IMG/VR virus record: IMGVR_UViG_3300025887_000010
Coordinates: 32,001 to 96,000 of that record
Strand: one strand, 5' to 3'
DNA: 64,000 bases
Origin: a virus
Shown piece after piece: positions 5,389-21,786 of the stretch (its first letter is position 1; every line of letters starts with the position of its first letter). The translations under genes and the position numbers were made by a program. The notes beneath the pieces are model-generated. The model worked only from the letters and a program-made list of their open reading frames with translations, did no database searches and was not told where the DNA came from.

Positions 5389-5756
5389 GCGGTTTCCTTC
5401 CGTGTTTGAGTCTTGTGGATTTCGTTGAAGTTCCATGGTTCTTCGTTCAACAGATTCTCAACTGCGACTTCAATTTCTACGAGAGAAGGACTTATGAGAG
5501 GCTTGGAACCATCGGGATTGCGAAGCTTGAAGATCGGATTGTCAATCTCGACTCCAAAGAATTTTGCTGCATTCTCGACTGCTTCCTCAGGTGGAGTTGT
5601 TGATCCACAGAAGTTGTTGTCGAGGCGCCAAAAGTTGGAAGCCACACCGATGAAGTTCGGGAATGGTCCAGTGTGCTTGTTGATCATTGACGACATGCGA
5701 TTGCGAAGATCACGAATGACCTTCATATACATGTCGGTGCGAAGCTTGCGATTCAT
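5385..5756 (-). CDS. Hypothetical protein
   Basis: Coupled ORF in an ATGA-overlap chain. Confidence 0.65.
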   Translation of the reverse strand: MNRKLRTDMYMKVIRDLRNRMSSMINKHTGPFPNFIGVASNFWRLDNNFCGSTTPPEEAVENAAKFFGVEIDNPIFKLRNPDGSKPLISPSLVEIEVAVENLLNEEPWNFNEIHKTQTRKETA

Positions 5757-6088
5757 AGTCTGTGCCCTTCCATGAGCTTTCGGATTTTGCGAGAACCGAG
5801 ACGATCCTCAGAGTGAATGGCGAATGCTTTCGGAAAACCGAGATTTTCACGATCGCGCTGAATGAGATACTCTGCAAATTCAGCGCCATTCTTCGAATCG
5901 GGACCAAGGTTGTATGCGAACTGAACGAACTCAGGTGCACCAAACTCCTCGACGATATCAACACCTTCATCGTATGAGCGAACAACCACCCAATCTTCTT
6001 CGATCACCCCACTTGCGAAGGTTTCGAAGAAGGTCTGAAAGGCCCCGGTTGGGGACCTTTTATTGTCAATAAAAAGTCTGTAGTTCAT
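5753..6088 (-). CDS. Cyclic-phosphate-processing receiver-like domain protein, degenerate
   Basis: LFIDNKRSP, WVVVRSYDE, QFAYNLG, NGAEFAEYL, IHSEDRLG parallel the family pattern LFLDDxRxP / SFDHDLG / HSxNPxG. Confidence 0.65.
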   Translation of the reverse strand: MNYRLFIDNKRSPTGAFQTFFETFASGVIEEDWVVVRSYDEGVDIVEEFGAPEFVQFAYNLGPDSKNGAEFAEYLIQRDRENLGFPKAFAIHSEDRLGSRKIRKLMEGHRL

Positions 6089-6517: not shown

Positions 6518-7675
6518 TCAGAAAAGATCGAGAGGGGCGGCAGGAACCTTTGATTTCGAGAGGACTTTCCAGAACTCATCGTACCATGAGTCTTCAGAGA
6601 AGTGCTTGCGTGCAGACTCAGCGATAGACTTTCTGTCATCAAACGATAGTGAGTTGACATATACGAGCTTGATCTTCAGGTCAAGTACCCACTCAGGATC
6701 ATCATATGCGACAGGTTTGACACCAAGGTCCGTCACCTGGTTGATGTAGTGATCGGCAGCATGAGTTTGACCTGCCTTGTCAACGAACGTGATCGGTATT
6801 CCACCAAATAGCAGTGTCTCGATTGCAATCAAACCAAGCGACTCATCGGGTCGAGCGACCAAACATGTCGAGCATTTCTGATACTCGAGCAGAAGCTGAT
6901 CTCTCGTTTCATTGTGATGAAGAACGGTGTTCTCAGATTTGTCGAGAGTCTTGATGATGTTCGGGAAGTCTGCACCGGAGACGTATGCGTCAAATTCGAT
7001 TCCAGCCTTTGCAATCTTTCCGAAATTCTTCTGTGGGTGGCATCGACCGACCATCAACGTTTTGCCTTCATTCGGCACGACATCCATTTCCCAAATCTTC
7101 GGATCCATTGTCGTGTAGACGTCAGCATCGTCAGAAATATAAGTGTGTGGCGGAGGATTGTCCATCGTATCAGAGAACTCGAAATGCTTTGCGCGAATCC
7201 ATGGTGAAGCATAGACTCGGCCACCATTCTCTGTGATGGTCATGCAATTCCTGACGATGCCCTGCAGGAACATCGGACTTGGTATCCAATCTGGGATCAT
7301 ATGGGTCGTTGGAATGAACTTCGAAATGGCAGCTGGAACTGTAGTCGTTGAAGCATTCGACCAACAGAAATCAGGATTGATGATCTTCGCCTGATCAATG
7401 TAGGCCTTTCCGACCCTTCGAGACATGGCGACTGCTTCCTTTGGTCCATGAAGTTCCAACACTTCGTCTCGACTCAACTCACTAACAGAGTGGAATGTCG
7501 CATATTCCAGGAAGACTGGATCAATCTTGCCAGTGCACAGAACGTGAACGTCAATTCCCTTCTTCTTAAGGATTTTGATCCACGAATGCTGACGAGCTTC
7601 GATGCCGTTGCGAGGCTTTCGGTGATCCTTGAACGCACCACCAGTGATGTGAGTCGAGACGATAAGGATTTTCAT
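6518..7675 (-). CDS. GT-B fold glycosyltransferase (GT4-like)
   Basis: MKILIV N-terminal strand, VGRCHPQKN, and ESLGLIAIETLLFGGIP (E-x7-E motif). Confidence 0.8.
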   Translation of the reverse strand: MKILIVSTHITGGAFKDHRKPRNGIEARQHSWIKILKKKGIDVHVLCTGKIDPVFLEYATFHSVSELSRDEVLELHGPKEAVAMSRRVGKAYIDQAKIINPDFCWSNASTTTVPAAISKFIPTTHMIPDWIPSPMFLQGIVRNCMTITENGGRVYASPWIRAKHFEFSDTMDNPPPHTYISDDADVYTTMDPKIWEMDVVPNEGKTLMVGRCHPQKNFGKIAKAGIEFDAYVSGADFPNIIKTLDKSENTVLHHNETRDQLLLEYQKCSTCLVARPDESLGLIAIETLLFGGIPITFVDKAGQTHAADHYINQVTDLGVKPVAYDDPEWVLDLKIKLVYVNSLSFDDRKSIAESARKHFSEDSWYDEFWKVLSKSKVPAAPLDLF

Positions 7676-8100
7676 GCACAAATGCCTTTCAGCATTTTGG
7701 AGTCAATAACGTACGACGAAAGATCGGGTGCTTTCCAACCTTCAGGCTTGATGGCATCAGGAAGGCCGAGAGGATTTGGACGACCAGGTTTGACACCAAT
7801 CTCCTTTTCCATATTGGCATCGTGAACCTCGATGAAAGCCCCAAGTGACATATCAGTGCCGATCAGAATGTTGAGAGTTCCGACGTTGAAATATAGACCA
7901 TCGATGAGTGCATCAACAATCTCGGCTGCATCTTTATCTGCGATTGCATTCTTCAGTTCAGTAAGCTCTTCTTCCATCATACGAACACGAAGTTCAATGA
8001 AAGCTTTAAGCTTCTCAGGGTCACTTGCGATCTCGTCGTAGCGGTTAACGTGACCCATCTTTTCATGGAATTCTTCCACTATGTCGAAAATGTTCATCAT
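7672..8100 (-). CDS. MazG-like (all-alpha) NTP pyrophosphohydrolase
   Basis: EEELTE...EIVDALID, EVHDANM.K, IKPEGWKAPDL. Confidence 0.85.
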   Translation of the reverse strand: MMNIFDIVEEFHEKMGHVNRYDEIASDPEKLKAFIELRVRMMEEELTELKNAIADKDAAEIVDALIDGLYFNVGTLNILIGTDMSLGAFIEVHDANMEKEIGVKPGRPNPLGLPDAIKPEGWKAPDLSSYVIDSKMLKGICA

Positions 8101-8368: not shown

Positions 8369-9253
8369 TCAGAGAAATTTGTCATAGGCTTTTTCGATCG
8401 AGAACGACTCGTTACCGAAGTGTTCATGGACCTTTGCGATCTCGTCGATTGTGGTCTTCTTATAGTCGCCGAGGAAGACTTCGAATGGCTTCGCTCCAGG
8501 CTGCTTCGTTTCGGTCATCGTATCAATTCCCATCAAGATCATTCCGAAATCGATGCGAATGTCTGTCATCTCCTCAAACGCCATCGCGTAAAGCGATATT
8601 TGACGTTTGTATCCACCAATGTCTTTCGCAGACTTCTCTTTGCGAGACGATTTGAAGTCGATCAGTGTGATGAGACCATTGAACTCGACATCGTATGCTC
8701 CTCCATCCTTGTTCAAAACGCCTTCGAGTGTGTAGTCCTCGTCGTATTCCCCAATACAGTCAACTCTACCAGCAATCTGAAGAACATCCGAATAGAGAGC
8801 ATGCTCCAAACAGTGAACGTTGTCGATTTTGTCGAGGTATGGACGAAGCTTCCTGAATAGACTCCATCCTCGCATGTGAGTGTCTTTGACGACCTCATTT
8901 CGAATGTAGAGTTCGGCCATATCGTGCATCGACGTACCACGAGTTCGGGCCTCATGACTGACGCGATCGGCTTCTTCTTCACCAACAGCATCTCTCCAAG
9001 CCTGAAGCCAACCATTCTCACCCTGAAGATCAGCAATCTGACCGAGTATCGTCGTTGCAGATGGATATGCGCGTTTCTCAGGATTGTCGTCAGTTGGTGG
9101 AATGATGTAGTAGCGCCCAGGGAATTTGCCTTCCTTGTACGCGTCGATGTTATGCACGTCTTTGCGAAATTTGAACTGATCCCAGTCGTGAGTGAATGGG
9201 ACCAGTCTTGGTTGTTGCTCAGCCGACTCTCTGAATTTCTTGAAAATACTCAT
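8369..9253 (-). CDS. PD-(D/E)XK (Cas4-like) exonuclease of T4-like phages
   Basis: YPSATTILG, RGTSMH, AGRVDC, IDFKSS, QISLYA. Confidence 0.85.
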   Translation of the reverse strand: MSIFKKFRESAEQQPRLVPFTHDWDQFKFRKDVHNIDAYKEGKFPGRYYIIPPTDDNPEKRAYPSATTILGQIADLQGENGWLQAWRDAVGEEEADRVSHEARTRGTSMHDMAELYIRNEVVKDTHMRGWSLFRKLRPYLDKIDNVHCLEHALYSDVLQIAGRVDCIGEYDEDYTLEGVLNKDGGAYDVEFNGLITLIDFKSSRKEKSAKDIGGYKRQISLYAMAFEEMTDIRIDFGMILMGIDTMTETKQPGAKPFEVFLGDYKKTTIDEIAKVHEHFGNESFSIEKAYDKFL

Positions 9254-9259
9254 GGTCTA

Positions 9260-9288
9260 GCTATATCACATCCTGCTCATCTTGTACA
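9260..9288 (-). promoter_or_regulatory. Early promoter (TGTACA-N17-TATAGC)
   Basis: Motif match inside the 3' end of the upstream gene. Confidence 0.65.
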
Positions 9289-9752
9289 ACAGTTTTTGGA
9301 TGAGGAATACGATGAGGATACGGTTTTGGTGGACACATGAAGTACGAGACATTCTCTTCGAAGTTCCGATTGTGTTGAATCATCCAATCTTCTTGACCTT
9401 TCTCCTTGAGGTGCTTGTTGATATCAGAGATCATCATACTGACGGTGCTCAGATCAGAACCGGACTCGAAAAGGGTGTCGTAGAACATGTTCGACCACAT
9501 CACATCTTTGCAACGACCATCAGGTGCGCACAACCAAAGATGTGAAAAGAGTCGGCGTTTGCGAATGACCTTCATTGAAATTCTACTATTTTTCGGAATG
9601 CCCATACCAAAGTTCGGATCGATTCCGATATTTATCAGCGCCATTTTGGTATGTTCGCTCATTTCGAGATGATACTCTAGAAGATTGAGAGCGTAATCCA
9701 CCTTCATCAGATCGTTTGGTAACTTGTTGATTTCGTCTTCGTACGGTCTCAT
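9261..9752 (-). CDS. Hypothetical protein
   Basis: ATGA-coupled to the glf stop; third gene of the GT-glf operon. Confidence 0.65.
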   Translation of the reverse strand: MRPYEDEINKLPNDLMKVDYALNLLEYHLEMSEHTKMALINIGIDPNFGMGIPKNSRISMKVIRKRRLFSHLWLCAPDGRCKDVMWSNMFYDTLFESGSDLSTVSMMISDINKHLKEKGQEDWMIQHNRNFEENVSYFMCPPKPYPHRIPHPKTVVQDEQDVI

Positions 9753-10786
9753 TTGAAGTCCTCTGCTGCTCGCATTGCTGAATTGACAGCTTGATCCATA
9801 TCTAAATAGGCATAAAGACCAAGGCGACCAATGAAGGTTATCGAGTATGGCCGCGCCATCTTCTTGTATTTTTCGTAGAGCTTACGATTCTCTCCGTCCA
9901 CATCTTTGACAGGATAGAATTTGCGATCACCATTTTCTTCAGCAGCACATGGCTCTTCCCACATTACGGCAGATGTTTCGGACGATCCATAGCTATTCGG
10001 AAGCTTCGACCACTCTGTGATCCGTGTGTATGGGCCAGTGTTAGTGAAGTTCACTGTTGCAGCCTGGAGAACATTCTCGAGTGGGAGTGTTGCATGATGG
10101 AACTTGAGAGAACGATACGGAAGGTGTCCATGGATGTAGTTGAAATACTCATCGATAGGCATCGAATTGAAAATCCAGTCCGCACTTGCGATGAAATCAC
10201 CACCGTATCCAGTTTTACCAAACTCCATAAAGTCGCAACCTGTCATAACATTGATGTTCTCATGATCGAGCATGTTTTCAACCATTTTGGTGTATCCATC
10301 CTTAGGAAGCACCTGAATGTCGTCGTTTGGGAAGTACAGCTCATTCATATCGTCACGAATGGGAACACGATTCATGATGCTCGGACTCACCCTTTCAAGT
10401 GACATTCCCCACATCTTCTCGGTGTAAGGACGGAAGAAGATGTCGATAACGTTTTCTTCGCCGACGATTTCTTTCGTTTCCTTGTTCACAGGAAGCGTGA
10501 CAAGACGTCCATCTTCAAGAAGAGCTTTGACCTTGTGCTCATATTTCACCCATTCCGTGAATCGGCTCAGAAACTCGAAGACTTTGACGTTGTTCGTGTG
10601 GAACAGGTGAGGACCATATTTGTGGATTCGATGTCCGTCATCGATCACATAATCAAAAGCGTTGCCGGCAACATGGTCACTCTTCTCCATGACGACGATT
10701 TTGTGTCCCTTTTCAGCGAGAAGACGAGCAACTGTTGATCCTGAAAGTCCTGCTCCGACGACAATGAATTTGCATTTTTTGCTCAT
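9749..10786 (-). CDS. glf: UDP-galactopyranose mutase (FAD-dependent)
   Basis: GAGLSG, AGNAFD, HKYGPHLFHT, FFRPYTEKMWG, RVPIR, PKDGYT, LPYRSL, YTRITE, FYPV, GRLGLYAYLDMDQAV. Confidence 0.95.
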   Translation of the reverse strand: MSKKCKFIVVGAGLSGSTVARLLAEKGHKIVVMEKSDHVAGNAFDYVIDDGHRIHKYGPHLFHTNNVKVFEFLSRFTEWVKYEHKVKALLEDGRLVTLPVNKETKEIVGEENVIDIFFRPYTEKMWGMSLERVSPSIMNRVPIRDDMNELYFPNDDIQVLPKDGYTKMVENMLDHENINVMTGCDFMEFGKTGYGGDFIASADWIFNSMPIDEYFNYIHGHLPYRSLKFHHATLPLENVLQAATVNFTNTGPYTRITEWSKLPNSYGSSETSAVMWEEPCAAEENGDRKFYPVKDVDGENRKLYEKYKKMARPYSITFIGRLGLYAYLDMDQAVNSAMRAAEDFK

Positions 10787-11898
10787 TTGCGTGCATCCAA
10801 AATTTTCTGGAGTTCTTCACGTTGAACTCGTTTCGTAAGTGGGTGTTTCTCATAGAGGCAGTCTTTCTGTGCTTTCGCAAGAGCAACTAGACCAGCTGTA
10901 TCGAGACCCTCGATTTTGTCGGCAGTGAGGTTTTCGTACGCTTCACCGTAGACTTCAGCTTCTTTCTGATCACAAAGCAGAATCGATCCTGCATCAGCAA
11001 CTTGAAGCGGACGGGCACGCCACCAACCAGAGCCAGCATGGCTGTACGCAGGCATCAGGCAACCCCATTGTTTGTTAAAGATGCGACACATTTCGGTCTC
11101 AGTGACTCGTTCGCATTTGTATTCGCCACGTGATGCACCGAAGAAGTTCACCTTCCATTCGACCTTCTTGCTCTTCATCCACTTACGTGTCTTGTTATGA
11201 ACGAGAGATGCGAAGTTCCATTCACGAAGCTTTTTCTCAGGACGAATGCCAATGGTGTCAGGCTCATCGAACATGTCAAGATCAGTGTCGTTTTCGAGAC
11301 CGAAATTGTTGTCAGGTCGACGATTTAGGTGGTACGGATTTGGGTTGTATGTGAAGACACGCTCACTTGGCCATTCGAGACTCAAGAGACTCAGATCGCC
11401 ACCAGCAAATGCGCTCATCAGAAGGCGATTCTTGCCATTGACAATGCTGTCGCAAGCATCCTTGTAGAACGATTCGTACTTCTGCACTTCCTCGAGTGAC
11501 TCCTTGCCACCCCAGTTCGACCACAGATAGTCGCGATAGCCATTTCCTTCTTCGAGCTGCTTCTTGTAGCCGATGATGTCTTTGAAGATACCAGGGAATT
11601 GCCAATCATCGAAAGCAACAATGCAATCTGGGCGAGCGCCGATAGCATACAGACCTGACCACAGATACTGTGTGAAGGCTGCTGTTGGGTGGACGATCGC
11701 AATCACGTCCTCATACTCGGAAAGGTCTTCGCCCAGTTTGACGACTCGTTGTTCGACTTCGTATCCCATTGCTTCGAGACCATTCACGAGTGAGTAGTGC
11801 GAAGGAACGATCTGCAAGCGAAGAAAAGCCGAGTGTGCATTTCGGTTGCATTGAGCTTTGTTCATTCCGGTGACGAGGATTTTCGGTTTTGCAGTCAT
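10783..11898 (-). CDS. T4 beta-glucosyltransferase-like DNA glycosyltransferase
   Basis: Colinear similarity to T4 BGT recalled from memory: IVPS...LEAMGYEV (TVPS...ISEMGLNV), AFDDWQFP (LFTDIRLP), VNFFGASR (IEFFGNAR), RARPLQVADAGSILLCD (TLRVWETMASDAVMLID). GGAG RBS before ATG 11898. Confidence 0.7.
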   Translation of the reverse strand: MTAKPKILVTGMNKAQCNRNAHSAFLRLQIVPSHYSLVNGLEAMGYEVEQRVVKLGEDLSEYEDVIAIVHPTAAFTQYLWSGLYAIGARPDCIVAFDDWQFPGIFKDIIGYKKQLEEGNGYRDYLWSNWGGKESLEEVQKYESFYKDACDSIVNGKNRLLMSAFAGGDLSLLSLEWPSERVFTYNPNPYHLNRRPDNNFGLENDTDLDMFDEPDTIGIRPEKKLREWNFASLVHNKTRKWMKSKKVEWKVNFFGASRGEYKCERVTETEMCRIFNKQWGCLMPAYSHAGSGWWRARPLQVADAGSILLCDQKEAEVYGEAYENLTADKIEGLDTAGLVALAKAQKDCLYEKHPLTKRVQREELQKILDARK

Positions 11899-11931
11899 AG
11901 GTATCTCCATAGAGGTTTTGTTCTTAAGTTC

Positions 11932-11960
11932 AGTGTATCACAATTTAGCCAGCTTGTACA
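11932..11960 (-). promoter_or_regulatory. Early promoter driving the BGT-like/glf operon (TGTACA-N17-TACACT)
   Basis: Motif match immediately upstream of the GT start. Confidence 0.7.
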
Positions 11961-12184
11961 CAGTCAATGCCATGTTTTTGCCATCTAATTGTCTCGATGG
12001 CATTCGCAAACACTTCGTGTTCGTTCATCTCGAAAAGGAGTTTCTCACGAAGTGGATGCTCGAAGTCTTCGACATCGGTACAGTGATTGCGGAAAATGTA
12101 TTGTCCGAATCTCACATTATTGTCGGCAGATTTCCACGCACGGAAAACTTCAACGAGTTCGGAATAGGTCTCAATCTTTAGCAT
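11945..12184 (-). CDS. Hypothetical protein
   Basis: MLKIETYSELVEVF...VRFGQYIF; overlaps the end of the upstream gene. Confidence 0.6.
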   Translation of the reverse strand: MLKIETYSELVEVFRAWKSADNNVRFGQYIFRNHCTDVEDFEHPLREKLLFEMNEHEVFANAIETIRWQKHGIDCVQAG

Positions 12185-12797
12185 CAGGTAGATCCAGGTC
12201 AAAGTATTCAAGTTCTTTCAGGGTGATGAACTGTGTATTTTGCCTCTTCTCACGGCGAGAAATATGATGATGACCACCAATCCAATAGTCGGGTTGATGA
12301 ATTTCGAAAAGCTCCTGAAGTATCTCGCGAGTGTTTGTGATTTCATGACCGAATTGATCTTCGACATACGATTGTGGAAAGTCGTGTGAGATGACCACTC
12401 GAGGCTTCGCAATTTCGTAACGGGTAAGTATGCTGAGAAACTTGTCTTCAGTGACTTCCTCATCAGGCCACCAATTTATGCCTGGTATAAGAACCTTTCC
12501 AGGATTGTCAGGCGTTTTCGCACCGCCGAAGTAGAAGATTGAGCGTTTCCTGTCGTAGTAGCCGTCTGAGATGTAGTTTCCCATTCCTTCAGCAATTTGT
12601 GGGTGGTCATGATTGCCTCTAATAAACAAATGACTGGGATTCTTGTTTACCCATTGAACGATTTCCACCATTTCATGCGGTCTGAAAAAACCGAATCCAA
12701 AGTCGCCAACCTGAATAGAGTTCTCAACGACTTCTGCAATTTCAAAGTATTCCTGAAACTTAGCGTGGACATCGCCAATAATTCGGACTTTGGTCAT
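12171..12797 (-). CDS. Calcineurin-like metallophosphoesterase
   Basis: GDVH, GDFG, RGNHD, SHD, GHHH. Confidence 0.88.
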   Translation of the reverse strand: MTKVRIIGDVHAKFQEYFEIAEVVENSIQVGDFGFGFFRPHEMVEIVQWVNKNPSHLFIRGNHDHPQIAEGMGNYISDGYYDRKRSIFYFGGAKTPDNPGKVLIPGINWWPDEEVTEDKFLSILTRYEIAKPRVVISHDFPQSYVEDQFGHEITNTREILQELFEIHQPDYWIGGHHHISRREKRQNTQFITLKELEYFDLDLPDAKD

Positions 12798-12820
12798 ATT
12801 GATCTCCTATTTCTTAATTC

Positions 12821-12849
12821 ATGATATCACATTTCGTGCATGATGTACA
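12821..12849 (-). promoter_or_regulatory. Early promoter (TGTACA-N17-TATCAT)
   Basis: Motif match upstream of an AGGAG RBS. Confidence 0.7.
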
Positions 12850-12935
12850 TAGTAAAGTGACTGTTGCCTCGTTAAACCTGGAGCTCGCTGAGTCTTACGA
12901 TCGTATTGACAATATAATATACATCAAACGACAAA

Positions 12936-12964
12936 GAGGAACTCAGCGATTCACTGAGTTCCCC
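12936..12964 (-). terminator. Intrinsic terminator in non-coding region
   Basis: GGAACTCAG/CTGAGTTCC stem followed by TCTTTGTCGTTT on the minus strand. Confidence 0.6.
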
Positions 12965-13021
12965 TGGTTAGATCAAGGTTGTCAATCTTGTCTTACATAT
13001 TTCAGAACAAACTTTCGAAGA

Positions 13022-13491: not shown

Positions 13492-14093
13492 TTTTGGACC
13501 TTTTTAATTACGTTGAGCACCTTCTTAGAGAATGCGTATTGATCTTCGAGTCGTAGGGATTGGCGAAGAATTCGGTAAGCTCTCTTCGAAAGCAGCCCTT
13601 TCTCCTTCCGCAGTTCGCTGAGATCGACTTCTTCGACCTCACTGTGATACTTCATGGCAGACAGAATCGAAAGTTCACCAGAGATAACGCCATTCACAAT
13701 TCCGGTTTTGCCGTTCTTTTCGACGAGATTTGGCATCGCTCGAAAAGAATCACGAAGGAACATAAAGTTTTCCTCATGATCTGATTGTACGAACGATTGG
13801 TAGATGTCATGCAATTTGTCGACGACACTCGTTGAAACCTCGCTGTCGTAAATGTGAGGCATGTTCGAAGTCTTCGCGATGTTGTTGATGAAGAAGAACG
13901 CAAAGTAATACTCGTCGTTCATCTTCCTTACGATCTGCTTCAGGTTACGCTGTGCAAATCCTCTCTGTGCAGTCGACATCTTCGGATACTTGAACCTAGG
14001 AACGAGTTCCTGGTCGAGAGGAAGATCATGGTCTGCCACGAAGATCATTCGATATCCGTGAGCAGACCGAAAGAGATCATTCTTATCAGCCAT
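13488..14093 (-). CDS. Probable helicase loader (gp59-like)
   Basis: 201 aa, near gp33; FAFFFINNIAK and IVNGVISGELSILS weakly resemble T4 gp59. Confidence 0.45.
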   Translation of the reverse strand: MADKNDLFRSAHGYRMIFVADHDLPLDQELVPRFKYPKMSTAQRGFAQRNLKQIVRKMNDEYYFAFFFINNIAKTSNMPHIYDSEVSTSVVDKLHDIYQSFVQSDHEENFMFLRDSFRAMPNLVEKNGKTGIVNGVISGELSILSAMKYHSEVEEVDLSELRKEKGLLSKRAYRILRQSLRLEDQYAFSKKVLNVIKKVQK

Positions 14094-14799
14094 CGTCGTT
14101 CACGCGGATCGCCAAACCATTGTTGGTGGTCCATAGTGTGTGATAGCCGTATTTCGCGAGATGCTCCTTGACAGCACGTGCACTCTTCGTCACTCGATTG
14201 CCTTCGAAGTAGATGATAGAAGGACGAATCTTGTTCCAGTCGGTTGCAATGATTGCGTCGGCGTCTTCACCTTCGATATCAATCTGGATGATATCGGGTT
14301 GAGTCCCAGACGCGTTCACGAGAGACTCAATGGTCTGAGTCTTGAAGTTGAACTTCTCGATTGCGTCTTCGGCCTGGTCTTCTGGGTTCTGACGTGCTTG
14401 ATGGAACCAGTTTCGCAACTTCCCATAATGGATTGTTGAGACGCCGAGTGGTGCACGATATTCAGGCCAATCAGGTTTCGAGTATGTCCGTGCAACCTTC
14501 GACCAATATTCCTCCTTGATGCAAAAGATTTCGACATCTTCACCATCTGTCGACGAAACGATTGAAGGGATGATCTCGAAATCTTCATAGTCGATTTCAG
14601 CCATGTGATTGCGGATGATAGGATGAAGTGACGAGATTGGCTCGACGAGAATCAAGCTTGAGCGGTCTCGAAGTTGAGGAAGAATGCCGTAAAGCGGATC
14701 GTTGTATTTCGCATCATTTGCGCCGATGACCATCAAATCCAAATACGATTTCGAAGTCAAAAGAGTCATTATGGCTGCGTAGTATGGTGTCGTTCTCAT
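14086..14799 (-). CDS. FkbM-family SAM-dependent methyltransferase
   Basis: MVIGANDA, LILVEP, PDIIQIDIEGED, RPSIIYFE. Confidence 0.82.
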   Translation of the reverse strand: MRTTPYYAAIMTLLTSKSYLDLMVIGANDAKYNDPLYGILPQLRDRSSLILVEPISSLHPIIRNHMAEIDYEDFEIIPSIVSSTDGEDVEIFCIKEEYWSKVARTYSKPDWPEYRAPLGVSTIHYGKLRNWFHQARQNPEDQAEDAIEKFNFKTQTIESLVNASGTQPDIIQIDIEGEDADAIIATDWNKIRPSIIYFEGNRVTKSARAVKEHLAKYGYHTLWTTNNGLAIRVNDDG

Positions 14800-15044
14800 G
14801 ATATGTCCAGTTCTATGTGAGTGGATTTCGATTGCTTGAGCAAGTTGTTCTTTCTGGCTTCAGCAGAAACCCGTTCGATGAATGTTTGGGAGAACTTCAC
14901 CGTTTTGTGAATTTCCTCGTAATCTACATCGTGTTGCTCGCAGTAGTCCACAGCAGCATCAAAGAGTGAGTCGAACTCATTATCCGAGAAGTGCTGTAAG
15001 ATTTTCTGCTCGAAGTCAGATACGGTTTTTGGTGATGCACCCAT
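14796..15044 (-). CDS. gp33: Late transcription co-activator
   Basis: LFDAAVDYCEQHDVDYEE...ERVSAEARKNNLLK matches the gp33 pattern. Confidence 0.8.
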   Translation of the reverse strand: MGASPKTVSDFEQKILQHFSDNEFDSLFDAAVDYCEQHDVDYEEIHKTVKFSQTFIERVSAEARKNNLLKQSKSTHIELDIS

Positions 15045-15727
15045 TACGAGGGATCAGGAATGAGATTGAAGTTGCGCTCATAGAAGTGCATGTTCTGCAC
15101 TTGCCAGTGAAGTGTACCGATCTCTAGATCGAAGTCAAAAAGTGTGTGTGCATTCAAATCACAGACAAGCATGCTCATGACATGTATCTGCCATGCACGA
15201 TCATTTCGATATCCAGCCCAGGCATCGTTCGAACGCATTTGAACTACAGCATGAAGCTTACCATCACGAATCTGGTAGGAAACAGCATTGGTGCAGATAA
15301 AGTCAGACATACCGTTGTGAGCATACTCGACCCAAATAGATGGACGGTTGTAGATCATGACGGCTCGACGTGAACTCGGATTTTTCGCAAGTTCCTCTAA
15401 AACTTTGGCGTATTGATGATGGTATAACGGCGAAAAGATCAGCAATCCGTAATTGGAGTTGATGAGACCGTCACTGGATGAGATGTCTTGCCAGATTTTT
15501 GGAACGATGTCGTAATATCTACCGATATCGTTAACAGAACGACTCATCGATTCGTACCAATCGATTTCGGCATCGATGTATTTCGTGTTAAGATCACCGA
15601 ATATGGTTGCTTCATCAGCTTCAAACGATGCTCCGAGGATTTCGATTACGTTCGTTCCACCGAGATTGACGATGTCACCAGCAGCTTTCTTCTCGATGAA
15701 TAGGTTACGGATATCTTGTACGTTCAT
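15044..15727 (-). CDS. gp42: dCMP hydroxymethylase (thymidylate synthase fold)
   Basis: Colinear with T4 gp42: IEILGASFEADE..IFG, EIDWY, INSNYG, NPSSRRAVMIYNRPS, GMSDFICTN (catalytic Cys), MRSND, GYRND (Asp of cytosine-specific enzymes), MHFY. Confidence 0.93.
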   Translation of the reverse strand: MNVQDIRNLFIEKKAAGDIVNLGGTNVIEILGASFEADEATIFGDLNTKYIDAEIDWYESMSRSVNDIGRYYDIVPKIWQDISSSDGLINSNYGLLIFSPLYHHQYAKVLEELAKNPSSRRAVMIYNRPSIWVEYAHNGMSDFICTNAVSYQIRDGKLHAVVQMRSNDAWAGYRNDRAWQIHVMSMLVCDLNAHTLFDFDLEIGTLHWQVQNMHFYERNFNLIPDPS

Positions 15728-16116
15728 TGGACGCTCTCCTCTTCTTCTGACAATTTGCGATTGAAGACATCAGCCTGTAGGTCTTGGCCGTCGATCTCTC
15801 TGTTGATGAACGCAGCCATGAAGCTTGCGTAGTTGACCATATCCATCAGGGTGTCTTCGACGGATTCGAAAACTGGAGCGTTATTGTTCGATTCCCATGT
15901 TTCGATCAGTGACTGAAGCCGAAGCTTCTTCGCATGGATGATCTCTTCGATCGTCTTGATGCCTGACGGATAATAGTCAGCTTGCTTGACGCGAGAGTTT
16001 GGATTTTGGTAATCCTGACCCTTGAGTCGTTGAAGTTCGATGCATTTCTGCAGGAACATAACCGAGTAGCGCTCTTTCGATACGCCGATGGCTTCGAGTC
16101 GGTTGGTTGTAGACAT
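15724..16116 (-). CDS. Nucleotide-modification-associated domain 1 (DUF1599-like all-alpha pyrophosphatase fold)
   Basis: K..DY, K..RL, ESVEDTLMDMVNYA; coupled directly upstream of gp42. Confidence 0.72.
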   Translation of the reverse strand: MSTTNRLEAIGVSKERYSVMFLQKCIELQRLKGQDYQNPNSRVKQADYYPSGIKTIEEIIHAKKLRLQSLIETWESNNNAPVFESVEDTLMDMVNYASFMAAFINREIDGQDLQADVFNRKLSEEEESVQ

Positions 16117-17636: not shown

Positions 17637-18341
17637 CTACTCAGAAGATTGCTTCTTGAGGATAAGTTTCAAAATTTGATCGACAGTCTGGACACTTTCG
17701 ACCTCGTGATCGTCGATTTCAAGTTCGAAATCTTCCTCGATGAGTATATGGATTTCGACACAATCCAAACTGTCAGCTCCCAAATCAGTGTGGATGTCTG
17801 AATTGGGGTGAACGAGATCGATATCAACCATGAGATGGCTTGCGAGAATACTTTTGATACGGGTAAGAAGACTGTCGTTTTCGACTTCCTTCACTGGTTT
17901 ATCATCAGTGATTGTCATCGGGATGATCGACGATTCACGATCTCCGAAAATATATAGGTTTGGGTTCTTCCAGCGAGCTTCGAATTCCTCGTTCGGAATG
18001 TAGAAGATGCGATCAATCCCAGCTTTGAATAGCTTGGAGATGCATCCTCCACATGGGAAACCAGTTACGTAGGCATCACATCCTTCGACACGAGTACCGA
18101 ATTGAGCAGCATTCAGGAGTGCATTCTCTTCAGCGTGGATTGAAAAGACAAGACGATCGTCGCGTTGTAGATTTTCAACTGCGTCATCATCGATACCTGG
18201 ACAATTTCCATTCCATCCAGTAGAGATGATGTGGTGTGACTTGGAGGCAATAACACATCCAACATGAGCACCGTTATGTTTCGAATTTTGCGATGCAAGA
18301 GATGCAACACACATTGGGTAGGTTGTGATGCTCTTCATCAA
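17637..18341 (-). CDS. cd: dCMP deaminase fused to a C-terminal acyl carrier protein domain
   Basis: HAEENA and PCGGC zinc motifs, then in frame RIKSILASHL...DLGADSLDCVEI...EEDFELEIDD...TV (ACP; Ser codon at 17769-17771). Confidence 0.88.
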   Translation of the reverse strand: MMKSITTYPMCVASLASQNSKHNGAHVGCVIASKSHHIISTGWNGNCPGIDDDAVENLQRDDRLVFSIHAEENALLNAAQFGTRVEGCDAYVTGFPCGGCISKLFKAGIDRIFYIPNEEFEARWKNPNLYIFGDRESSIIPMTITDDKPVKEVENDSLLTRIKSILASHLMVDIDLVHPNSDIHTDLGADSLDCVEIHILIEEDFELEIDDHEVESVQTVDQILKLILKKQSSE

Positions 18342-18813: not shown

Positions 18814-20133
18814 TTAGAACAGGATACCAGTCACGCGGAACAAGCGGTAGAACTTGTTGGTCCGTGCTACGACTGCGCCGTTCGTGTCTGCCAGAGGGTT
18901 GACAACGAAACCGGCCCGTGTCTTGAAGAACATGACTGGCTGACCCGATGTTGGGGACACAGTTTCAACGCTCCAGACTGGGACGTATGGGCAGTAGAAT
19001 GCACCAGCTGCATATTCGGCATCGCCTTTCCAACCAACCATGCAGAAACCTGCGTTGGGGGAAGAGACTTGCGCACGGTCGTCACGGTAGATGCGCACTT
19101 TGCCCATCAGCATGCCGACTGCAGTCGTGGTGTCAGTGATGACCTCAGATGCGCCGGAGAACTGGTTGTTCGCAGGGCTGAGTTCACTGATGAAGCCGGA
19201 GTTGGCGAGCAGGTTGTAGGTCTTCGTGTCAACCACGGCAAAGTTACCATGACCGGTACGAGTGTCAAACATGATCTGCGAACATTCATGCAGAATGCGC
19301 ATTGCCAAGATACGACCTTTCTCACCAATCCACTGACCGTCGGTGTCAGCGTTCAAATCGTATACGCCAGGAGTGGTTGTGTCGGAGCAACCCAGAACTG
19401 CCGAGATGTACAACTTGCGAAGCGTTTCGTAGTTGATTTCGGAAGTCAGCTGTTCGGACATCATCGAGCCGAACATGGATTTGCCGTCGACACCGTGTTG
19501 TGCTGCAAGGTCCTGAATCATTTCCATCGAGAAGTTCGACATCAATGCGCGGGTCTTGGCTTGCACAGGGACGGAGTCCACAGTCATGGCGACCTGAGCG
19601 GTCACGTCGTCTTCGCCTTCGCCACTGGACATGAACCCACCAGTCGTAAAGCCGGAACCGATACCAGTACCAGCGTCGGCAGTTGGATCAGAGGCGCGGT
19701 CAGTGGCAACAACAGCAGCTTCGCGAGCGCCGGCAGAATCGAGACCAGTGAAGTCAGCTTGTGTGTTGTTGAGCGCAATTTCAGCGCCAGATTGGTTATT
19801 GAACCGTGGACGCCATGCGAAAGCAAGACCGGTTGGACCAGTAAGTGGTTGAGTACCAACAAGCTGGTTACCCAGAATCTGTGGACCCATCCGGCGAACC
19901 AGAGAGATTACCACCTGGTCATAGCCAGAAACGCCGCCAGCAGTGTTTGTCGGTGCAGCTTCTTGGAAGACGCTCTTCTGAGAGGCCAGGAAGTTGCGTG
20001 TGTTTTCCAGCATACGGGCGATGCCCATCTGCTTGGTTTTGTCCTTGACAGGCTCCATCGTGTCGTCCTGTGCTTCAAGCACTTTCTTCCACTTTTGGGC
20101 AAGGAAATGGTCGTTTTCACCATAAAATTCCAT
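18814..20133 (-). CDS. gp23: Major capsid protein
   Basis: ISLVRR, VGTQPLTGPTGLAFA, KTRAL, FYCPYVP, QPVMFFKTR; AGGAG RBS before ATG 20133. Confidence 0.96.
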   Translation of the reverse strand: MEFYGENDHFLAQKWKKVLEAQDDTMEPVKDKTKQMGIARMLENTRNFLASQKSVFQEAAPTNTAGGVSGYDQVVISLVRRMGPQILGNQLVGTQPLTGPTGLAFAWRPRFNNQSGAEIALNNTQADFTGLDSAGAREAAVVATDRASDPTADAGTGIGSGFTTGGFMSSGEGEDDVTAQVAMTVDSVPVQAKTRALMSNFSMEMIQDLAAQHGVDGKSMFGSMMSEQLTSEINYETLRKLYISAVLGCSDTTTPGVYDLNADTDGQWIGEKGRILAMRILHECSQIMFDTRTGHGNFAVVDTKTYNLLANSGFISELSPANNQFSGASEVITDTTTAVGMLMGKVRIYRDDRAQVSSPNAGFCMVGWKGDAEYAAGAFYCPYVPVWSVETVSPTSGQPVMFFKTRAGFVVNPLADTNGAVVARTNKFYRLFRVTGILF

Positions 20134-20182
20134 CGTGTTTTCTCCTAAGGGTGTTGGATCATTTGTTGCATGATCATTCGTA

Positions 20183-20189
20183 TATTTTA
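20183..20189 (-). promoter_or_regulatory. Candidate late promoter TAAAATA upstream of gp23
   Basis: 50 nt upstream of the gp23 start; the motif recurs before late genes. Confidence 0.55.
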
Positions 20190-20213
20190 CTCGTGCTGGC
20201 ATTCGATTTTAGA

Positions 20214-20597
20214 TCAGGACTTCAACATCCTTGTGACGATCTTGTTGCCCTTTTCACGAAAGGCTTTCACGAACTCGGGTGACGAAATCCCAGAGCAGGA
20301 CTCTGCAATATGTACTTCAGTTCGATATCCTTGCGTGATCGTGTGACGGACAGAACCCATTGCGATTCCATTTTTGGTCGTAAGAATGTTCTCGATCACT
20401 ATGGATTCGCCATCATTATCCACCGAGGTGCTCACTGCAAACCCGGAAGACTCGAGGAAGGTCTTCGAAAATGATTCGATGACCTTCGAAATTGATTCGA
20501 CTTCAGAGTCAGTGAGCGTCAAGGATGTGACAGACTCCGTGAAGAGATTGTCACACCCTCTTTCGCTCAAATCCTCGAGGATTTGGCTGATCCGCAT
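20214..20597 (-). CDS. Hypothetical protein between gp22 and gp23 (possible internal head protein)
   Basis: ATG 20597 directly after the gp22 stop; N-terminus MRISQILE. Confidence 0.6.
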   Translation of the reverse strand: MRISQILEDLSERGCDNLFTESVTSLTLTDSEVESISKVIESFSKTFLESSGFAVSTSVDNDGESIVIENILTTKNGIAMGSVRHTITQGYRTEVHIAESCSGISSPEFVKAFREKGNKIVTRMLKS

Positions 20598-20598
20598 A

Positions 20599-21786
20599 TC
20601 AGCTTTCCATTGCTTCATCGATTGCACTGAAGAGGTCACCCTTGACTTCGCTCTTGAGACTGAAATTAGTGTCAGCGTTCTCGACAATGCGCTTCATGTA
20701 GTTGTCGTTTTCGGAGTCTTTCTCGGTGAAGAACTTGGTCTTCAACATGGTGGCCTTGCCTTTGAAGTCTTCAAACGAGCTGAAGTCGACCTCGTTGACA
20801 GATTCGACGAAGCGTTCCTTTACAGAGTCCGTCATGTCGTCAGAAGCATTCTCAACGAAGCGTTCAATCTTCAGCAGAAGAGCTTCTTTGCGAACGGTAT
20901 CCAACTTGGTAGAAAGCTCTTCGACGAAATCGGTCTTGTCCTTCAGATCAGACTGCAGTTCCTGAATTTTGGAGCTGTTTTCGGCCTTCATCTCGAAGTC
21001 GGTGTCTGAGAACAGAGTCTGAGTTTCCTCAAAGAGAGTCTCCAGTTTGGCAAGACGTGCCTTATCGACGATGACATCACCATGAGATTCGAAGAAGTCG
21101 TTTGTTGCACGTTCGACGTATGCAGAAACACGACGGTCAATTTCTTTCTCCTGGGCTTTCGCATTGGCTTCGTACTTTCGCTCCATTTTCGATAGAGCCT
21201 TTTCAGAAACGGCAACAGCGACTCGTGCGATCTCGGTCTTCAGAACAGCGACAAAGGCGGCAGAGCGTTCTTCATCAAGGTCGAGAGATTCGATGACCTT
21301 CTTGACGACAGCGTTGTCGACCACGGAGATTGGAGCAGACTCACCAAGAATTGGAGCTTCATCGTCTTCATCGCCTAACTCGTCATCTTCATCGCCCATT
21401 TCGTCGTCCTCATCACCCATTTCATCGATGAGTGGATCATCAAGACCGTCGATGGACTCTTTCTTCTTCTTCTCTTCGTAGTCCTTGTCGTCCTTGTCGT
21501 CCTTGTCGTCGTCCTTGTCGTCGTCCTTGTCGTCGTCCTTGTCGTCGTCCTTGTCGTCGTCCTTGTCGTCGTCCTTGTCGGACTCTTTCTTCTTCGCTTC
21601 CATCTTGGCGAAGATCGAACGAATCTTGTACGATTCGCCTTTTGTCAGCGTGGGAGCGTCATCAACGGATTCGTTAAGCAGTGCGAATCCCTTGTCGGCG
21701 TTCTCAGCAAAAGCGGTCGTGATCTCATTCAGTTTGCTTGGGTTTTTGCTTGCAAGGTCCTGCAAAGCTTTCAGAATTCTATCCAT
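20599..21786 (-). CDS. gp22: Prohead core scaffold protein
   Basis: Acidic coiled coil between gp21 and gp23; VSAYVE, VDFSSFEDFKGKATMLKTKFF, MKRI C-terminal pattern. Confidence 0.85.
   Translation of the reverse strand: MDRILKALQDLASKNPSKLNEITTAFAENADKGFALLNESVDDAPTLTKGESYKIRSIFAKMEAKKKESDKDDDKDDDKDDDKDDDKDDDKDDDKDDKDDKDYEEKKKKESIDGLDDPLIDEMGDEDDEMGDEDDELGDEDDEAPILGESAPISVVDNAVVKKVIESLDLDEERSAAFVAVLKTEIARVAVAVSEKALSKMERKYEANAKAQEKEIDRRVSAYVERATNDFFESHGDVIVDKARLAKLETLFEETQTLFSDTDFEMKAENSSKIQELQSDLKDKTDFVEELSTKLDTVRKEALLLKIERFVENASDDMTDSVKERFVESVNEVDFSSFEDFKGKATMLKTKFFTEKDSENDNYMKRIVENADTNFSLKSEVKGDLFSAIDEAMES
21481..21580. repeat. In-frame tandem repeat (12-bp GTCGTCCTTGTC about 6 times plus 9-bp units) encoding (DDDK)n
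   Basis: Visible directly in the sequence. Confidence 0.95.

Follow-up and report, generated by a model that had tools for sequence, protein, structure and literature searches.

Several systems are known in which phage DNA carries sugars on modified cytosines. The DNA of Rhizobium phage RL38J1 contains hexosyl-5-hydroxycytosine (hexosyl-5hoC) with galactose proximal to the base, synthesis of UDP-galactofuranose by the phage has been proposed, and its gp151, named 'Glucosyltransferase 2', is the putative transferase for a second sugar, glucose (Lee et al., NAR 2026, PMC13326640). Arabinofuranosyl-5hoC is found in RB69 and DLP3 (Lee et al., PMC13326640). Phage enzymes of the GT-B fold put heptose, Kdo and other sugars on 5-hydroxymethylcytosine (5hmC) (Pyle et al., bioRxiv 10.1101/2023.12.21.572611; Cell Rep 2024). 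The subject here is a 64,000-nucleotide stretch of DNA from an uncultured T4-like phage (positions 32,001 to 96,000 of IMG/VR record IMGVR_UViG_3300025887_000010; hereafter the window), in which the gene for a glycosyltransferase (GT) resembling T4 beta-glucosyltransferase (BGT) is coupled to that for a UDP-galactopyranose mutase (Glf). Judged from sequence, this GT probably writes a furanosyl-5hmC, most likely galactofuranosyl-5hmC.

A first-pass annotation of the window had considered such a modification undescribed. That view needs narrowing on two counts: phage UDP-galactofuranose synthesis had already been proposed for the galactosylated 5-hydroxycytosine of RL38J1 (Lee et al., PMC13326640), and BGT-like GT-B phage enzymes that put unusual sugars on 5hmC have been shown (Pyle et al.). 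The literature search returned no description of galactofuranosyl-5hmC and none linking Glf to Aeromonas phages.

The GT–Glf pair and its predicted sugar donor

The record (126,862 bp, 46% G+C) encodes a gp42-type hydroxymethylase, a MazG-type pyrophosphatase, a bona fide GalE, an intact Glf and two cytoplasmic glycosyltransferases, the GT and a second enzyme (GT2). The features on which the argument turns are the following, in window coordinates unless the record is named.

11932..11960, minus strand: promoter (TGTACA, 17 nt, TACACT; TG before the -10 element) of a recurrent phage class
10783..11898, minus strand: GT-B glycosyltransferase GT, 371 aa, phrog_14998, a predicted DNA 5hmC galactofuranosyltransferase (AlphaFold2 model, fold matches, hhalign)
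9749..10786, minus strand: UDP-galactopyranose mutase Glf, 345 aa, short form (PF03275, PDB 3hdq)
7672..8100, minus strand: MazG/PRA-PH-type NTP pyrophosphohydrolase, 142 aa, candidate dCTPase in place of T4 gp56 (PF01503 1.5e-9)
6518..7675, minus strand: second glycosyltransferase GT2, 385 aa (phrog_30124 2.3e-44), its gene in ATGA overlap with the MazG gene
15044..15727, minus strand: gp42-type dCMP hydroxymethylase, 227 aa (PDB 1b49 5.8e-60)
record 19645-20616 (L097:7645-8616), minus strand: GalE, a UDP-glucose 4-epimerase outside the window, about 22 kb from Glf (TIGR01179, 310.5 bits vs cut-off 262.3)
record 114762-116120 (L100:1262-2617), plus strand: NDP-sugar 6-dehydrogenase outside the window (TIGR03026, 305 bits, above cut-off)

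In the proposed pathway, dCMP would be converted to 5hm-dCMP, and 5hmC would take the place of cytosine at replication. GalE would turn UDP-glucose into UDP-galactopyranose, and Glf would contract its ring to give UDP-galactofuranose. The translationally coupled GT-B enzyme would flip out 5hmC in the manner of T4 BGT and put galactofuranose on the hydroxymethyl group, with a beta linkage if it inverts as BGT does, and consumption of the product would pull the unfavourable mutase equilibrium forward. GT2 would probably add a second sugar. The resulting glycan would likely protect the DNA from restriction by the host, from CRISPR effectors and from nucleases specific for glucosyl-hmC.

The pair itself is read directly in the sequence. 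On the minus strand, a GT open reading frame (ORF) of 375 codons (10783..11910) is followed by a Glf ORF of 345 codons (9749..10786), and the ATGA at 10783-10786 makes the GT stop overlap the Glf ATG. The probable GT start is the ATG at 11898, with GGAG 6 nt upstream, and gives the 371 aa that the gene callers also report. The first-pass annotation had described this overlap, an intact glf and a gp42-type gene 3 kb away; all three hold, Glf matching PF03275 and 3hdq and the gp42-type gene lying about 3.1 kb off at 15044-15727. A GT/Glf overlap of 4 nt or 1 nt is kept in relatives L007, L098 and L009.

The association of glf, a BGT-like gene and gp42, whose co-occurrence across phages the first-pass annotation had thought worth checking, recurs widely in the 84 related contigs with GT relatives in which neighbourhoods were counted. 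Glf lies directly after the GT in 46 of the 84, and a gp42-like gene stands within about 3 kb of the GT in 76. Among the thymidylate-synthase homologs encoded nearby, the Asp/Asp signature of the 5hmC type is found without exception (79/79). In 18 contigs, each of which also has Glf, the gene immediately before the GT encodes a GalE-type epimerase. GT–Glf adjacency is also found in Aeromonas phage Aes012, in phage C48C1 and in actinophage DSL-LC01. The Glf-linked GTs span 25% to 65% identity to the window GT; the value is 36% in C48C1, 25% in the actinophage and 29% in the T4-like phages cultured from Aeromonas, where gp42 is present too. In a quick maximum-likelihood tree (IQ-TREE), the 22 GTs without Glf form one clade (SH-aLRT 100) nested among the Glf-linked ones, which argues for Glf linkage as the ancestral state, with a single loss. 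In L098, the nearest related contig, the entire layout is retained, GT2 included.

The mutase has the features expected of its family. Glf matches PF03275 (5e-55), PF13450 (2.9e-18) and PDB 3hdq (8e-71), and has the FAD-binding Rossmann motif. Its score against TIGR00031, 289.8 bits, is slightly under the equivalog cut-off of 303.75, a shortfall due to a deletion of about 39 aa in the helical domain that is common to its clade. In a HMMER alignment to 1wam/2bi7, with residues counted by hand, Tyr155, Trp160, Arg174, Tyr185, Arg250, Asn270, Arg280, Tyr314, Arg343 and Tyr349 of the Klebsiella pneumoniae UDP-galactopyranose mutase (UGM) are all kept, and the substrate- and flavin-site columns are invariant across seven phage Glfs. 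Together with the GT coupling and the phage's own GalE, Glf completes a predicted route from UDP-glucose through UDP-galactopyranose and UDP-galactofuranose to DNA.

A different furanose is conceivable at this step. Bacterial UGMs interconvert UDP-L-arabinopyranose and UDP-L-arabinofuranose in vitro, and UDP-GalNAc is a substrate of a homolog from Campylobacter. A promiscuous mutase might therefore supply UDP-L-arabinofuranose or a UDP-N-acetylgalactofuranose-type donor, and the product would be a non-galactose furanosyl-hmC. The deleted, short form of the phage Glf, the D-arabinofuranosyl cytosine derivatives of RB69 and DLP3, and the NDP-sugar 6-dehydrogenase in the record would fit such a donor. 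This dehydrogenase is nearest to the UDP-GlcNAc 6-dehydrogenase TviB, though under that equivalog's cut-off, and might provide one of the transferases with a uronic-acid donor. Against this stand the GalE equivalog in the record and the GalE-type genes beside the GT in relatives, which also make the UDP-arabinofuranose option raised in the first-pass annotation the less likely one, as well as the conservation of all UDP-galactose-binding residues of the K. pneumoniae enzyme. The arabinose-5-phosphate isomerase, kinase and uridylyltransferase of the RB69 type were not among the scanned module proteins or annotated relatives, no genome-wide search for them having been made. A furanose other than galactofuranose is, on balance, decidedly unlikely.

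Fold of the glycosyltransferase and the second transferase

The GT has 667 relatives in metagenomes. Its AlphaFold2 model, built on 45 relatives, reaches a pLDDT of 91 and shows a GT-B fold, and T4 BGT is the first-ranked match of the model in both structure searches: 1qkj in Foldseek (E 3.8e-6, TM 0.53) and 1c3j in VIA-align (Z 16.7, 287 residues, 3.7 A). Profile comparison of the GT family with a 30-sequence BGT alignment (hhalign) gives Prob 73.8% and E 2.9e-5 over 308 columns, with the central part poorly aligned, and only Prob 7% against the single T4 BGT sequence. A search of PDB sequences with the GT family profile found no BGT chain at E<=10, its matches being chance ones.

The motifs AFDDW and RARP, which the first-pass annotation had equated with the catalytic Asp and the phosphate-binding Arg of BGT, are both present and occupy invariant columns of the GT family alignment. 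The second equation is supported by hhalign, which pairs Arg296 of RARP with BGT Arg269 and Gln299 with BGT Glu272, residues invariant in their families; Arg269 is one of the phosphate-binding residues of BGT, with Arg191 and Arg195. The first is left at a positional resemblance. In the modelled structure, the invariant Asp97/Asp98 come after N-domain strand four, the position at which the catalytic base Asp100 of BGT presumably sits, and hhalign does not pair them with Asp100. The modelled GT is BGT-like in fold, and probably in mechanism as well. As for the description 'BGT-like' in the first-pass annotation, and the comparison with T4 BGT that it had proposed, the fold and the first rank of BGT stand, as a likeness and not as established membership in the BGT family.

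Several points weigh against a galactofuranosyl-5hmC transferase. Pfam has no family that the GT matches at E<=0.01, hence not PF09198 either, and NCBIfam has no matching model. Other GT-B enzymes come within one Z unit of BGT in VIA-align (glycogen synthase 16.4, T4 AGT 16.1, PimA 15.9). For these two reasons the GT is BGT-like and not a shown member of GT63/PF09198. Characterised bacterial galactofuranosyltransferases are mostly GT-A enzymes. Relatives 48-51% identical to the window GT make up the clade without a neighbouring Glf, so that either the GT family is not restricted to furanoses or a host Glf is used. No dNMP kinase is recognised in the record. GT2 could itself be the user of the furanose donor, its cultured-phage relatives all being in Glf-carrying phages. 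The proposal that a Glf-made furanose is put on 5hmC, first made in the earlier annotation, is partly supported overall. Comparative evidence supports it well, through the coupling, the GalE linkage, the 79 of 79 5hmC-type synthases and phage C48C1, and chemically it stands as a prediction.

The near-equal scores also bear on whether the pair acts on DNA at all. The GT-B fold is common to transferases acting on lipopolysaccharide (LPS), glycolipids and proteins, and these score nearly as high as BGT; Glf is classically an enzyme of cell-envelope pathways; distant members of the GT family occur in Gordonia phages; and glycosylation of actinophage virions is known. The pair could then modify part of the host envelope, as happens in serotype conversion, or a protein of the virion, as in the glycosylation of capsids. 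Its genomic setting speaks for DNA: the pair lies among nucleotide-metabolism and replication genes, and across the family the GT keeps company with a 5hmC-type synthase in 76 of the 84 contigs, or shows an expression overlap with a TET/JBP dioxygenase. In RL38J1, the sole chemically studied phage of the Pootjesviridae, it is the DNA that bears galactosylated cytosine. Outside the GT family, the viral protein that matches best in structure has 351 aa, the length of T4 BGT. A role off DNA is considered very improbable.

GT2 belongs to a rare family: among 1.84 billion proteins it accounts for 9 representative clusters. A word-based protein search found one homolog, and a scan of viral contigs for close relatives found none. 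In the phage collection, its tblastn matches are confined to the Pootjesviridae, the RL38J1 match being RL38J1_151 (26% identity, E 2e-28). GT2 and Aes012_228 show no similarity. GT and GT2 were also considered as paralogs, an idea dropped when no similarity was found between them. The presence of GT2 in the GT unit, and the retention of its layout in L098, make a disaccharide likely, with GT2 probably adding the second sugar.

GT2 is also central to another possibility, namely that the sugar which the GT puts on 5hmC is a hexose in pyranose form, glucose or galactopyranose, and that the Glf product is used by GT2 or elsewhere. Galactofuranose would then be a distal sugar or absent from the DNA. 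This would suit the location of GT2 in the transcription unit of the GT, the confinement of its phage-collection relatives to a Glf-carrying family and the clade of close GT relatives that lack a neighbouring Glf. Three observations favour the furanose instead. Adjacency of GT and Glf, often with overlap, persists across 25%-65% GT identity in lineages whose 10-kb surroundings yielded no homolog of GT2; GalE, GT and Glf form triplets in 18 contigs; and in RL38J1 the base-proximal sugar is galactose, gp151 being assigned to the later glucose. Transfer of a pyranose by the GT is accordingly considered unlikely, and galactofuranose remains the preferred sugar for the position next to the base.

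The predicted modified base, gene neighbourhood and promoters

The hydroxymethylase is 49-51% identical to T4-type gp42. It keeps the catalytic Cys in DFICTN, and the motif MRSNDAWAGYRND is also present. Asp at the position of ThyA Asn177 sets cytosine specificity. The window enzyme reads MRSND...D, with Asp at both the ThyA-169 and the ThyA-177 positions, as in T4 gp42, and this Asp/Asp signature predicts 5hm-dCMP as the precursor. Enzymes making 5-hydroxycytosine are marked by Asn at ThyA-169 (D169N) (Lee et al., NAR 2026, PMC13326640). RL38J1_216 reads MRSQN, with Asn at ThyA-169, where the window enzyme reads MRSND; the D169N signature is absent from the window enzyme and from all 79 neighbours of the GT family.

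Promoter 11932-11960 belongs to a recurrent class. The motif TGTACA-N13-15-TGnTAnnnT has 24 copies genome-wide, where mononucleotide shuffles give 0.26 on expectation and 2 at most. Each copy lies on the gene-bearing strand of its region, most with an ATG within tens of bases downstream, and GTTG or GTAG often stands just upstream. The copies in the window are at 3506-3478, 6488-6460, 11960-11932, 12849-12821, 18602-18574, 33721-33693 and 35948-35920. A generic sigma-70 scan leaves 11932-11960 just under its threshold, so that it is unlisted there; the strand-matched copies nonetheless identify it as a real member of a phage promoter class, and the dedicated GT promoter named in the first-pass annotation is upheld on that ground. 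A TTGACT further upstream was rejected as the -35 element, being 24 nt from the -10 element. The TGTACA-type motif is probably the early promoter consensus of the phage, and the GT promoter is placed in the early nucleotide-metabolism region. The next minus-strand copy, at 6488-6460, bounds the GT transcription unit, whose order is most likely GT, Glf, the 163-aa ORF, the PD-(D/E)XK exonuclease, an 86-aa ORF, MazG/PRA-PH and GT2. Further genes of the unit and its surroundings are:

9261..9752, minus strand: 163-aa protein without a family match; second ATGA overlap, with Glf
8369..9253, minus strand: PD-(D/E)XK exonuclease in the GT transcription unit, with a putative role in the module (PF12705 1e-4, phrog_298 1.7e-54)
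15724..16116, minus strand: Nmad1/DUF1599-like protein directly upstream of the hydroxymethylase (PF07659 8.2e-5; its 23.3 bits do not reach the cut-off, 25)
17637..18341, minus strand: dCMP deaminase ending in an ACP-like domain, part of the early nucleotide-metabolism unit (PF00383 1e-18, PF00550 1.9e-8)

Family searches with the 163-aa ORF (9261..9752) gave no match; it is 42% identical to a 150-aa product of the L098 operon encoded one gene further from Glf. The MazG/PRA-PH protein has 45% identity to the PRA-PH gene of relative L007, and the window and L007 have in common the order of a DUF1599 gene followed by a thymidylate-synthase-family gene. The record also encodes a true ThyA outside the window. 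Searches of the record by tblastn and phmmer found no homolog of T4 gp56, gp1, BGT or Dam, nor of the C5-methyltransferase-like gene of the relatives. The product of that gene is a relative of the C5-cytosine methyltransferases, 399 aa long (PF00145; TIGR00675 at only 40.6 bits), and the gene comes directly after the GT or Glf in 78 of the 84 contigs (e.g. L007:10087-11286); the phages that carry it also have a gp42-type hydroxymethylase, and it is absent from the genome of the window. In the deaminase (17637-18341), the reading frame continues into the ACP-like domain, an unusual fusion; the L098 deaminase has a similar length, 224 aa.

Phage C48C1 (OQ984149.1, Kyanoviridae) presents a variant of the module. 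Upstream of its GT–Glf pair, and overlapping the start of the pair, lies a gene for a 472-aa Tet_JBP dioxygenase (L001:6580-7998, PF12851 3e-17), which is a different route to hydroxymethylpyrimidine in DNA. No thymidylate-synthase homolog and no PF00145 C5-methyltransferase were found in this phage. The assumption that the dioxygenase acts on 5-methylcytosine was dropped for want of that methyltransferase; it may instead act on thymine (cf. PMC13229309), and C48C1 may have a base-J-like system of galactofuranosyl-5-hydroxymethyluracil (galactofuranosyl-hmU).

Joined together, these elements suggest a broader claim, for and against which the balance is even. The GT family would be a DNA-specific GT-B galactofuranosyltransferase that writes beta-galactofuranosyl-5hmC and, with TET/JBP partners, perhaps galactofuranosyl-5hmU; extension by GT2, possibly with a uronic acid made through the phage's own NDP-sugar dehydrogenase, would give a heteroglycan on every cytosine; and the same base would be present, unrecognised, in Aeromonas T4-like phages that have long been in culture.

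Other observations concern the surroundings of the module. The record carries a T4-type core (gp23-like capsid, gp20-like portal, gp6 baseplate wedge, gp18 sheath, topoisomerase II), and a DNA-level search of window positions 9000-13000 against 50,697 phage records gave no match. Between genes for a gp33-like coactivator and a 201-aa ORF lies a gene resembling FkbM-family methyltransferases (14086-14799, minus strand, PF05050 1.7e-6), which the syntenic L098 lacks at the corresponding place. Immediately past the downstream end of the hypermodification unit, a 111-aa protein (5753-6088, minus strand) matches a cREC_REC 'cyclic-phosphate processing receiver' domain (PF20274 2.1e-13). Bases 1-100 of the record recur at 123402-123501, and the promoter copies at record 2019 and 125421 have identical flanks; the two ends of the record thus seem to share a direct repeat, about 2 kb long or longer, e.g. 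a terminal redundancy or an assembly overlap.

Comparison with known systems

If the galactofuranosyl-5hmC proposal is true, a ring-contracted hexose joins the known sugars of phage DNA, and a widespread family of DNA transferases, with >650 metagenomic relatives, would come equipped with a pathway for its donor. DNA modified in this way should withstand ordinary restriction as well as type IV enzymes and further defences directed at glucosyl-hmC. This is of relevance to phage–host arms races, phage engineering and enzymatic tools for 5hmC labelling. A test would be inexpensive, since the trio of GT, Glf and gp42 exists in phages in culture, namely Aeromonas phages 25, Aes012 and phiAS4 and Stenotrophomonas phage IME13.

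RL38J1 resembles the window phage in encoding its own Glf, which shares 30% identity with that of the window, a homolog of GT2 (RL38J1_151) and a thymidylate-synthase-family enzyme that makes a modified dCMP. The base differs, being 5-hydroxycytosine (MRSQN) in RL38J1 and of the 5hmC type (MRSND) in the window phage. The proposed first transferase of RL38J1, gp215, is not detectably similar to the window GT (hhalign Prob 0.4%), and its Glf gene adjoins no GT.

The GTs that Pyle et al. found associated with 5mYOX/TET and ThyS enzymes are likewise GT-B proteins, matching T4 BGT in Foldseek at E 1e-5 to 1e-7, and their genes adjoin those for 5hmC-forming enzymes and sugar-nucleotide genes. The mutase and a furanose, by contrast, go unmentioned in that work.

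The T-even pathway is close in its base and in the size of its transferase. Its gp42 is 49-51% identical to the window hydroxymethylase and has the same catalytic signature, the window phage has a T4-like core, and both use a compact GT-B transferase of similar size, the best fold match being BGT (CAZy GT63, PF09198). However, the window GT lacks PF09198 and its profile homology is marginal, the donor route is phage-encoded (GalE and Glf) where T4 uses host UDP-glucose, and a second, unrelated GT is present. Homologs of gp56, gp1 and the alpha-glucosyltransferase are missing from the window phage, which has MazG/PRA-PH as its candidate dCTPase.

RB69 and DLP3 differ in the base, which is 5hoC, in their GTs, which belong to other families, and in the origin of the furanose, since D-arabinofuranose is made there by an arabinose-5-phosphate isomerase, a kinase and a uridylyltransferase, without a mutase. 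What they have in common with the system predicted here is a furanose on a C5-oxygenated cytosine, in a T4-like phage, supplied by a phage-encoded sugar-nucleotide pathway.

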